Below are positions 14,236-55,596 of a DNA stretch of 59,909 nucleotides, piece by piece; position 1 is the first letter of the stretch, and every line of letters begins with the position of its first letter. The notes under the pieces are model-generated. The model was not told the DNA's origin and did no database searches. It saw only the letters and a list, made by a program, of their open reading frames with translations. Made by a program: the position numbers and the translations under genes. The DNA is from Acidobacteriota bacterium (GTDB lineage: Bacteria; Acidobacteriota; Aminicenantia; UBA2199), in the NCBI GenBank assembly GCA_030837085.1, contig JAUPLE010000120.1, positions 1 through 59,909 of the forward strand, given 5' to 3'.

Positions 14236-17200
14236 ATGAATAATTTTGTCGGGATAATGGTTGAAGATAGCCCACAACTCCTGGTAGGGCTGCTGGGAAT
14301 TTTAAAATCCGGGAAAGCACTTGTCCCCATTAGCGCTACATACCCTTCAGAAAGAATTCATTTCATCATCAAGGATTGTAATATTCGCCTCTTGTTAACT
14401 GATAAAGCGAATTATGGCAAAAGTTATGAAATAGCAGCGGCAAGTCCGGTGTTGACCCACCTGCTTTGCCTGGATGACGGAACTAGCGACACTTTTGACA
14501 AAAAAACGGGGGAGGCCCACAGCTCTTTCCAAAAAGAAGAAACCTGCTATGTGATCTACACCTCGGGGTCCACGGGCAAACCCAAGGGCGTCCCTATCAC
14601 TTATCGAAATTTAAATCCCCTATTTTATTACTCCAGGGAATACCTGCACCTGGGCGGGCATACGCGTGTAATGAAGAATTTATCTTATACATTTGATTTT
14701 GGGATTTTCGAGATTCTCACGACACTTTTGTTTGGCGGTCAACTTTATATCTTAAATAAGTCATCCATTGGCGATTTTTCCTTTTATGCCTATTTTATCA
14801 ACAGGCAGCAAATTAATACTCTTCATACGACGCCGGTGTTTTTAAATAACCTGGCCTGTTCAGGCCAAAAAATGCCTTTTATAAAGCGTATCCATCTGGG
14901 AGGGGAGCAGTTAACCGGCAAGGTGGTACAGGATACACTGGCTGTGATATCCCCCGGGTGTATTCTCTACAATGGTTATGGGCCCACCGAAGCCTCGATC
15001 AACTGCACTTTTTTCTCTTTAACCTGGGAAGAAATGAAAGCGAACGTAAGGGAAAACATTCCCATTGGGAAGCCGTGCGACCGGCATGAAATTTATATCC
15101 TGGATAATTTTCTCAATCCGCAGCCGGTGGGAGCGGCCGGTGAATTGTGCATAGCAGGGCCGGGGTTGTCGAAGGGGTATTTAAACCGCCCGGAATTAAC
15201 TGCTGAAAAATTTGGACCACAGATTACGCTGATTACGCAGATTAATGTGATAAAAAAAACAAAAATAATCAAAAGTTTTACGGGGGTCCGTACCGGCGGG
15301 GCGGTTTTTCAAAAGAGCCCCCTGGAAATTTATCGCACCGGTGACCTGGCGCGGTGGTCAACCGACGGCAATATCGATTTCCTGGGCCGCATCGACCACC
15401 AAGTCAAAATCAGGGGGTTCCGCATCGAATTGGGAGAAATCGAAAGTTGCCTGTCCTTGCATCCAATGGTTAAAGAAACCGTGATCATGGCTCGGGAGTA
15501 TGAGAACGGCGATAATTACCTCTGTGCTTATATTGTGACTCAACCGCCGGAACATCTGACCGTCTCCCAATTGAGGGAATTTCTTTCAAAGCACTTACCC
15601 GATTACATGATTCCTGCATATTTTATTCAAGTGGACAGAATCCCCATGACAACCAATGGGAAAATAGACAGGAAAGCGTTACCGAAACCGGATGAAACTT
15701 TCATCGATACCGGCGTCGAATATGTTGCGCCGGTTACAGGAACGGAGAAAAAGCTGACACTCTTCTGGCAGCAGTTATTAATGATTGAGAAAATAGGAAT
15801 CGTTGATGATTTTTTCCATTTGGGAGGAGATTCCATCCTGGTGAACCGGTGCATTGCGCGCATCCGGGAAGAAATGCAAGTAGAAATTCCGCTGCGGAAA
15901 TTTTTTGAGCAACCTTTTATAAAAGCCTTAGCGGAAGAAATTGAGAAACAGGAACGCCGGGTATTTTCCATCCCGAAGGCAGCCCGGGATGGAGACATTC
16001 CGCTTTCTTTTCCCCAGGAACGGTTATGGTTTTTGCAAAACTTGAATTCAGAGAGTGTCGCCTATTTTGTACCCCGTGTCATCCGGGTCATAGGGAAACT
16101 GGAAGTAAAAATACTTGAACGGACCTTTACTGAAATAATTCGCCGTCATGAAATATTGCGAACAGTATTTGTGACAAAAGACAGTATACCCGTGCAGCAA
16201 GTGCAGGCTCCCTACTATTTTAATATCCCGGTTATCGATATAAGCCGTGACGAGGTGGAACATTGGGTAGAAGAAGAAGGACATAAGTCCTTCGATTTTG
16301 ACAAAGGCCCCCTGCTGCGAGTTTCCCTGCTAAAACTCGAAGAAAACGAACAACTGATAGTGCTGACTGAGCATCATTTGGTCCATGACGGCTGGACCCA
16401 GGGAGTGCTGTTGAAAGAGTTTATCCACATCTTCACCGCTTATTCCGAAGGAAGAGATCATGATTTGCCGGAATTGCCGATTCAATATGCGGATTTTTGT
16501 GTATGGCAGCGTGAATTTTTGCAAGGAGAGCGACTCAATCGCCATCTTGATTATTGGAAAGAAAAACTGTCCGATTTGATCCCGTTATTGGAACTCCCCG
16601 GGGATCGTCCCCGGCCAACAGTGATGAGTGGAAACGGCGCGTTGAAAGAATTTCGCCTGCCTTGCACCCTTACCAGGCAATTGGAAGAATTCAGCCGGGA
16701 GAATGGTATAACTTTATTTATGACTATGCTGGCAGTGTTCAATACTCTTTTATACCGTTATTCCCGGGAAGAGGATTTGTGTGTAGGCATGGGTATTGCC
16801 AACCGGGGTTATAAAGAAATGGAAGGCATGTTGGGGATGGTGATAAACACGCTTCCGCTTCGCACGCATACGGTGGGTGATCTTACTTTCACACAGTATT
16901 TAAACCGTGTAAAAGAGACCTGCCTGGAAGCATATCAACACCAGGATACGCCGTTCGGCAAAATAGTGGAAGCCCTGGCCCCGAAGCGAAGTTTAAGTTA
17001 TAACCCTCTTTTCCAGGTGATGTTTAATTTTATGGATACGCCTACGGAAGATTTATGGCTGCCGGGCCTGGAATTGCACCTGGAACCGACTCATAACCGT
17101 TCAGCTAAATTCGACATCAACATTGTTGTAGTACCACCGCCGGAACAGGAAATAGATCCGGCGTCGGAAATAAATGGCGGCGAAATCCTGGTGGAATGGG

Positions 17201-55596: not shown

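Follow-up and report, generated by a model that had tools for sequence, protein, structure and literature searches.

Can an assembly line build an ordered peptide-polyketide product when one of its polyketide modules has no acyltransferase (AT) and its first adenylation (A) domain lacks its N-terminal part? This question is raised by contig JAUPLE010000120.1 of the Acidobacteriota assembly GCA_030837085.1, whose 59,909 nt, analyzed in full, we refer to as the window. Five open reading frames (ORFs) on its forward strand, ORF1 to ORF5, encode large proteins of the nonribosomal peptide synthetase (NRPS) type, of the polyketide synthase (PKS) type or of both. From their sequences we consider it probable that the five genes constitute a single operon, encoding a collinear 12-module hybrid NRPS/type-I PKS assembly line of nine peptide and three polyketide modules. 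We place the same, fairly high confidence in the complete explanation developed below, which comprises the operon, the genomic island on which it lies and the proposed pathway. As judged from homologues, the machinery is of a well-known kind, the modular hybrid NRPS/PKS, built from uncharacterized cassettes typical of the lineage, and the cluster itself is an intact orphan.

Genes, domains and junctions

Domains were called with Pfam and with phmmer, for which domains of the cluster itself served as seeds. The two approaches agreed on the domain strings given for the five proteins in Table 1, and the Pfam E-values, between 0 and 1e-300 for ORFs 1.8-3.9 kaa long, are far beyond chance. These profile-based calls are identical to the string that the original prediction had derived from motifs. 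Likewise, recomputation of the ORF coordinates reproduced exactly the five lengths, the common strand and the four junctions that it had given, namely a gap of 4 nt (+4), an ATGA overlap (-4), an overlap of 20 nt (-20) and a second ATGA overlap (-4). No internal stop or frameshift interrupts the 41.4 kb of coding sequence. A GGAGA ribosome-binding site (RBS) is located 6 nt ahead of the ATG of ORF1. The -20 overlap between ORF3 and ORF4 holds only with ATG 43685 as the ORF4 start; an alternative ATG at 43691 has the better RBS spacing and may be the true start, and the ORF4 version from 43685 is absent from public proteins, among which the proteins of the other four ORFs are present. Promoter-like and terminator-like matches bracket the five genes, yet their count is not above that in shuffled controls.

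The catalytic residues of the line are well preserved. The ketosynthase (KS) triads are complete in all three cases, with Cys (TACSTS), His (HGTG) and His (NIGH), and the phosphopantetheine Ser is present in 12 of the 12 carrier domains, that is, in the thiolation (T) domains and the acyl carrier proteins (ACPs). The HHxxxDG motif is seen in seven condensation (C) domains and in the epimerization (E) domain; the C domain that follows the ORF2 ACP (C5) has FHIITDG (FHxxxDG), which keeps the catalytic second His. Both ketoreductases (KRs) carry TGGxGxxG together with the Lys/Ser/Tyr/Asn set, and the core motifs of the A domains are intact, with the exception of A1, which has no motif A1. When the three PKS modules were compared with the KS, AT and ACP set, KS and ACP were found intact in all three, and AT in ORF4 and ORF5 and not in ORF2.

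Those T domains that precede a KS carry Lys/Arg-rich tails at their ends, and a TubC_N docking domain stands at the start of ORF3. Because of these docking elements, and because every junction is translationally coupled, we read the five proteins as a collinear line; the collinear arrangement of nine NRPS and three PKS modules proposed earlier is thus supported by domain order, codes and junctions. The types of the C domains were compared with structures in the PDB. C8 is strongly DCL (best matches SrfA-C, TycB and BacC, ~1e-110), which fits the E domain directly upstream. C2, the C domain that follows T1, is closest to the LCL domains of Txo1/2 and of TycC6 (the latter at 1e-73, vs 9e-30 for SrfA-C); by these matches it is most like an LCL domain, with room left for a dual E/C function.

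Table 1. Positions and assignments of the features discussed; positions are those of the window.
Feature	Position	Strand	Description
ORF1	14236-25845	+	3869 aa; NRPS modules 1-4: shortA1-T1-C2-A2-T2-C3-A3-T3-C4-A4(Ser)-T4, basic C-terminal docking tail
ORF2	25850-35731	+	3293 aa; PKS module 5 (KS-linker-KR-ACP, no AT) and NRPS modules 6-7 (C-A5 Orn-like-T-C-A6-T)
ORF3	35728-43704	+	2658 aa; NRPS modules 8-9: TubC_N docking-C-A7(Thr)-T-E-C8(DCL)-A8(Gly)-T
ORF4	43685-50101	+	2138 aa; PKS module 10 (KS-AT-ACP, no KR) and NRPS module 11 (C-A9-T)
ORF5	50098-55596	+	1832 aa; PKS module 12 and release domain: KS-AT-KR-ACP-TE
Short-A(DFFHHGGINK)-T-C initiation cassette	14236-17280	+	core motifs A2-A10 intact, no A1 motif
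KS-to-KR stretch of ORF2	26990-27733	+	KS-AT linker fused to post-AT linker (…YPFERQRYW…)
Cys1629 codon TGT, thioesterase (TE) nucleophile (GFCVGG)	54982-54984	+	from alignment to EntF and AB3403
Code of A1			DFFHHGGINK; no known specificity matched
Code of A2			DVTNFAIVYK; no known specificity matched
Code of A3			DIFHLGMTFK; no known specificity matched; probably hydrophobic
Code of A4			DVWHISLVDK; Ser-like
Code of A5			DVGEFGAMDK; cationic, Orn-like
Code of A6			DALSLANVVK; weakly Leu-like
Code of A7			DFWNIGMVHK; Thr, canonical code
Code of A8			DILQLGMIWK; Gly
Code of A9			DVTNFAIVYK; same code as A2
Two overlapping sigma-70-like promoter matches	14037-14077	+	within AT-rich 523-nt leader
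Terminator-like hairpin, then T-run	55635-55650	+	39 nt past ORF5 stop; consensus match only
Accessory island	13713-57021		43 kb; cluster and one ORF without family match; not at the syntenic site of GCA_026393835.1
AlkD-like DNA-alkylation-repair glycosylase	13029-13712	+	PF08713, E = 7e-66; directly upstream of the cluster
301-aa ORF, TTG start	55986-56891	+	inside the island, GC3 (G+C at third codon positions) 0.44; CxxC…CxxC zinc-ribbon motif, C-terminal hydrophobic helices

Recurrent cassettes and chain release

ORF1 opens with 'MNNFVGIMVEDSPQLLVGLLGILKSGKALVPIS', ~20 residues ahead of core motif A2; in the alignment, residue 3 falls opposite residue 90 of GrsA, and ~70-90 N-terminal residues of the A domain are absent. 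In elongation modules, this part of the A domain adjoins the upstream C domain. That the missing N-terminus of A1 is encoded upstream or split off was ruled out, as tblastn upstream of ORF1 found nothing and an in-frame TAA stands 7 codons before the ATG. The short start and the code DFFHHGG[IV]NK are shared by at least 24 homologues whose identity over A-T-C is 45-68%; many of them are stand-alone A-T-C proteins of 1040-1080 aa. Among ~1050 A domains examined, the DFFHHGG code is present in 31, and 29 of these are N-terminal and truncated. The remaining two are internal copies in protein P0493 that follow a C domain and possess a full N-terminus; because these are full-length, DFFHHGGINK would specify an ordinary alpha-amino acid, and the truncation would be specific to initiation. 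ORF1 has the same features as the other members, with its start and code followed by a T and an LCL-like C domain. Since the short start, the code and the intact motifs are common to so many proteins, the short-A-T-C arrangement is, by this comparison, a recurrent initiation cassette and not a sign of decay.

Two further observations concern such domains. DFFHHGGINK is also found in L004, a metagenome-assembled genome (MAG) labelled uncultured Clostridia (CAZCVI010000006.1), and the cassette is thus not limited to Aminicenantes. At the locus L080/L081 (13383-13402), protein P0123 stops ~110 residues into an A domain, and the next gene, which overlaps by 20 nt, resumes before motif A3; the arrangement is identical in two assemblies and could be either a truly split A domain or a frameshift. 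It was set aside as a parallel for the short A1, because the break sits at a different site.

The second unusual element is module 5. When aligned to the PKS modules of ORF4 and ORF5, it is cleanly missing ~300 aa of AT, and Pfam gave no AT match (PF00698) in ORF2. The AT-less KS-KR-ACP-C layout recurs in at least 12 homologues that are 46-68% identical, two of which are part of clusters with cis-AT modules and no discrete AT within 10 kb. Judged by these homologues, it is a conserved, recurrent cassette and not an accident. The line does not have the make-up of a trans-AT PKS, as two of its three PKS modules have a cis-AT and the window contains no discrete AT gene. We infer that the ORF2 ACP is loaded in trans by the AT of ORF4, that of ORF5 or FabD. 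In the related AT family, GYSxGE and HAFHS predominate, which is a malonyl-type motif; in place of HAFHS, ORF5 has HAIHS and ORF4 VAMHS. GYSFGE in the ATs of the window is not an anomaly, being the norm of this family.

The same two elements could also mean that the line works in a non-collinear manner. Module 5, with no AT of its own and none encoded separately in the window, might be skipped or stalled, or A1, short of ~70-90 structural residues including motif A1, might be inert, which would yield fewer than three two-carbon units or a start at residue 2. We regard this as unlikely, because both features are cassettes with intact catalytic residues across homologues of 45-68% identity, a conservation that argues for selection on function; module 5 likewise retains intact motifs in its KS, KR and ACP.

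The line ends in a TE whose triad consists of Cys1629 (GFCVGG), Asp1656 (DTPPP) and His1804 (GDHYS). Cys1629 aligns with the catalytic Ser of EntF and the Cys of AB3403, and the Asp in DTPPP aligns with EntF DTWPP and the DT of AB3403, that is, with position I. In the PDB, the domain matches AB3403 of Acinetobacter baumannii (4ZXH) best (E = 9e-19). That protein also has a Cys nucleophile, and its Asp comes after beta6; being a single-module C-A-T-TE NRPS with an uncharacterized product, it corresponds to ORF5 at the domain level only. We expect this Cys-Asp-His TE to release the chain by hydrolysis or macrocyclization.

In a variant of the collinear model, the TE would close the terminal beta-hydroxy-acyl thioester to a beta-lactone warhead in an ObiF-like manner. 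The Cys nucleophile and the beta-hydroxy thioester expected from the last module speak for this outcome, and four-membered rings (beta-lactone/beta-lactam) are formed by the Cys-TEs ObiF and SulM, which have the catalytic Asp at position II in the loop after beta7 (PMC11298585). However, the ORF5 TE has the Cys of this type and not the Asp at position II, and ObiF is not among its PDB matches. Moreover, a Cys nucleophile is found in 10 of 20 related TEs whatever the context, and a long peptide would be the substrate in place of a small acyl-amino acid. The lactone is consequently quite improbable.

Specificity codes and proposed product

The nine Stachelhaus codes (Table 1) were extracted by MAFFT alignment to GrsA-PheA, which returned all nine codes of the original prediction, there extracted by hand. 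The code of A8 has been reported for Gly (PMC12283262). The A5 code agrees at 7 of 10 positions with DVGEIGSIDK, found in Bacillus loci, and the A6 code at 8 of 10 with the recurrent DAWSLGNVVK and at 7 of 10 with the canonical Leu code DAWFLGNVVK. The residues assigned earlier hold for Ser, Orn-like, Thr and Gly, whereas the Leu-like call for A6 is weak at this agreement with the Leu code. The D-Thr of the original prediction stands as an epimerized Thr and not in its configuration: alpha-epimerization of L-Thr by an E domain yields D-allo-Thr, not D-Thr. Since the E domain acts on the alpha carbon of L-Thr and C8 is of the DCL type, we assign residue 7 as D-allo-Thr.

The odd codes of A1, A2/A9 and A3, together with variants agreeing at 8-9 of 10 positions, were not found in the searchable full-text literature of ~8.3 million papers, in which canonical codes were found; the earlier statement that three codes covering four modules match nothing recognized is borne out within that literature. 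A2 and A9 share their code and are 64% identical. One Aminicenantes MAG locus has DVTNFAIVYK twice, four further MAG loci contain variants of it that agree at 8-9 of 10 positions, and an A3-like code, DIFHLGCTFK, occurs in an Omnitrophota MAG. Going by this distribution, the odd codes are recurrent in sediment MAGs and not noise.

On this basis, we propose the following pathway. The short-A1-T-LCL-like C cassette would load an alpha-amino acid, X1, and start the chain, to which modules 2-4 would add X2, X3 (probably hydrophobic) and Ser. The KS of ORF2 would then receive the tetrapeptide from T4, its ACP being malonylated in trans by the ORF4 AT, the ORF5 AT or FabD, and the KR would convert the extended chain end into a Ser-derived gamma-amino-beta-hydroxy (statine-like) unit. 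The chain would then grow by a cationic Orn/Lys-like residue, a Leu-like residue, Thr converted to D-allo-Thr (by E, then the DCL C domain) and Gly. ORF4 would extend Gly by malonate and leave the ketone unreduced, giving a gamma-amino-beta-keto unit, and would then add X2 again. ORF5 would catalyze a last malonate extension with ketone reduction before release by the TE. The pathway predicts the backbone X1-X2-X3-[Ser+C2, beta-OH]-(Orn/Lys-like)-(Leu-like)-D-allo-Thr-[Gly+C2, beta-keto]-[X2+C2, beta-OH], in which C2 denotes a two-carbon extension. By this reading, the product is likely a nonapeptide-triketide with two gamma-amino-beta-hydroxy units and one gamma-amino-beta-keto unit.

Several points weigh against this explanation. 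The organism is uncultured and its product has never been observed. We know of no truncated A domain with demonstrated biochemical activity, and no characterized counterpart was found for the codes of four of the nine A domains. The VAMHS motif of the ORF4 AT is atypical. The stereochemistry motifs LDD and W were found in neither KR, so that the configuration of the carbinols is not predictable. Among the flanking ORFs of the window, Pfam and NCBIfam detected no starter C domain, phosphopantetheinyl transferase (PPTase), discrete AT, exporter or tailoring enzyme, and a check of all six frames of the window revealed no MbtH signature, in agreement with the absences listed in the original prediction. 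Because the 60-kb window offers no accessory genes, function depends on loci elsewhere in the genome, from which a PPTase and a transporter would have to be supplied.

A bolder proposal is tentative, and we consider it doubtful: short-A-T-C would represent an undescribed, widespread class of NRPS initiation, active without the N-terminal ~70-90 residues and loading a dedicated amino acid, and the product would be a multi-statine transition-state protease inhibitor.

Genomic setting, relatives and known systems

The flanking AlkD-like and DUF5916 proteins have relatives of at least 90% identity in the Candidatus (Ca.) Aminicenantes MAG GCA_026393835.1. Window positions 5094-13708 are collinear with its contig JAPKZK010000150 at 85-89% nucleotide identity, and positions 57028-59278 are 90% identical to another of its contigs. 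Synteny ends at the stop codon of the AlkD-like gene, after which small toxin-antitoxin-type genes come next in GCA_026393835.1. Because the flanks match this MAG and the stretch containing the cluster does not, we define that stretch as an accessory island at a synteny break. Its GC3 is 0.40-0.45, vs 0.52-0.59 in the flanking genes, and is uniform across the five ORFs. No direct repeats of at least 12 nt were found flanking the island. Taken together, these data indicate that the island was probably acquired horizontally, in an uncultivated Ca. Aminicenantes (Acidobacteriota) host.

The proteins of ORF1-ORF5 are singletons at 90% identity among ~15 billion proteins, except for one Logan variant of ORF5. 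In a search of 185,579 species genomes, ORF3 reached a maximum of 52% identity; its best relatives (45-52%) are MAG proteins of Deferrimicrobium, Omnitrophota, Aminicenantes, Bacteroidales and Bacillota. By these proxies (90% clusters, best relatives that are MAG proteins, and codes in the literature), no orthologous or characterized cluster was found, a comparison with MIBiG being outside this scope. The searchable literature likewise yielded no paper tying Aminicenantes to a characterized NRPS-PKS product.

A much closer relative was found for the last PKS module. A module in another Aminicenantes cluster, L076, matches the KS-AT-KR-ACP of ORF5 at 75% protein and 81% DNA identity. The 81% nucleotide identity spans 5.3 kb (window 49325-54586 vs L076 9231-14501), covers the end of T9 and KS-AT-KR-ACP, and stops before the TE. 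The L076 module has no TE, and its neighbouring NRPS genes are only 40-46% identical. This pattern suggests recent module-level exchange or recombination. In L077, a 56% identical KS-AT-KR-ACP-TE(Cys) protein is likewise followed by a DUF5916 gene.

The identity with L076, together with an internal module-to-module identity of 50-70%, could also indicate that the MAG contig is an assembly chimera in which several NRPS/PKS clusters were joined via repeated modules. This is highly improbable. The interval 49371-55814, which takes in the ORF4/ORF5 junction and extends beyond the TE, has a 100% identical counterpart in an independently assembled Logan contig from SRR24011133. In addition, all junctions are translationally coupled with matching docking elements, the nucleotide sequences within the cluster are too dissimilar to collapse, and GC3 does not change from gene to gene. 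Decay into a non-functional remnant, to which a shortened A1, an absent AT and a window without accessory genes might point, has a very small probability given the uninterrupted 41.4 kb, the intact catalytic motifs and the same 'defects' in many homologues.

Outside the five genes, Rfam and tRNA scans of the window returned no matches. The AlkD-like gene was considered as a self-resistance gene, and thus as a hint of a genotoxin, and was ruled out because it is part of a conserved core block that is also present in the relative without the cluster. The 301-aa ORF within the island has no family match, and its exact sequence is not among public proteins. The conserved block at 5094-13708 (L082/L083) encodes a 304-aa protein without assigned function, two GWxTD-domain proteins, a CarboxypepD_reg-TPR protein, a sulfatase-TPR fusion (minus strand) and the AlkD-like protein. 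Ahead of this block (2077-5092, plus strand), a gene for an SBP_bac_5 solute-binding protein and one for a HAMP-HisKA-HATPase sensor kinase share 17 nt; this pair is not at the syntenic locus of the relative. An open frame of at least 625 aa (3-1877, minus strand) extends beyond the left end of the window; it has a signal peptide and leucine-rich-repeat-like 'ALYNSTNG..W' units; a partial ORF (59379-59909, plus strand) runs off the right end and is flavin-reductase-like by eye only.

The window cluster has cassettes in common with a set of clusters in Ca. Aminicenantes/Acidobacteriota MAGs (L076, L077, L078, L080, L086 and L087; e.g. GCA_026393835.1). Shared are short-A-T-C (55-68%), AT-less KS-KR-ACP-C (46-68%) and KS-AT-KR-ACP with or without Cys-TE (56-75%), as well as the code DVTNFAIVYK and, in L077, DUF5916 beside the TE. 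The clusters differ in the order and number of their modules, and the surrounding NRPS modules are 40-46% identical. Several of them carry methyltransferase (MT), radical-SAM/B12 or ThiF domains, which the window cluster does not. The radical-SAM/B12 domains occur as separate genes or inside A-domain proteins (L079 3756-5399 and 17238-18932; L086 15146-25127; L078 1817-6130), and one related Aminicenantes cluster has ThiF (E1-like) fused N-terminally to an A-T-C protein.

We know of no natural product from Aminicenantes, a common uncultivated sediment lineage. The window cluster is one among very many orphan clusters in MAGs. With its relatives, it reveals a shared Aminicenantes NRPS-PKS toolkit of short loading A domains, AT-less KS-KR-ACP-C, Cys-TEs and uncharacterized codes. 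The conserved short A domain offers a clean test of what the adenylation fold can do without, a question relevant to NRPS engineering. Three gamma-amino-beta-oxy residues in one peptide would make a plausible protease-inhibitor scaffold, and a role of the product as a protease inhibitor is speculation at this stage.

In hybrid lines of the FK228 type, AT-less PKS modules are complemented in trans. In FK228 as in the window cluster, a KS-KR-ACP lacking an AT is found within an NRPS-PKS hybrid whose cluster lacks a dedicated AT gene; the window line differs in having two cis-AT sister modules, whose ATs could act in trans.

The logic of the three NRPS-to-PKS junctions also has precedents. A junction from NRPS to KS-AT-KR-ACP is the established route to 3-OH-4-NH2 (statine-type) units, and a KR-less module keeps the ketone (PMC12081711). 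The same logic is seen in didemnin, burkholdac, hapalosin, thalassospiramide and nosperin, with a KR, and in andrimid, which is KR-less (PMC12081711). In contrast to these systems, the window line would combine three such junctions (two with KR, one without) in one nonapeptide, with one of them AT-less and one C-terminal. Products and organisms are unrelated, and the likeness lies in junction logic, with no sequence orthology shown. Pepstatin (Val-Val-Sta-Ala-Sta) is made by a dissociated, iterative NRPS/PKS without KR, and its ketones are reduced after release by the F420H2-dependent reductase PepI (PMC12081711). The window line, which is collinear with in-line KRs and has no PepI-like gene in the window, differs in these respects. 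The predicted product nevertheless resembles pepstatin, loosely, in that it too would present an N-terminal tripeptide followed by one internal and one C-terminal statine-like residue.

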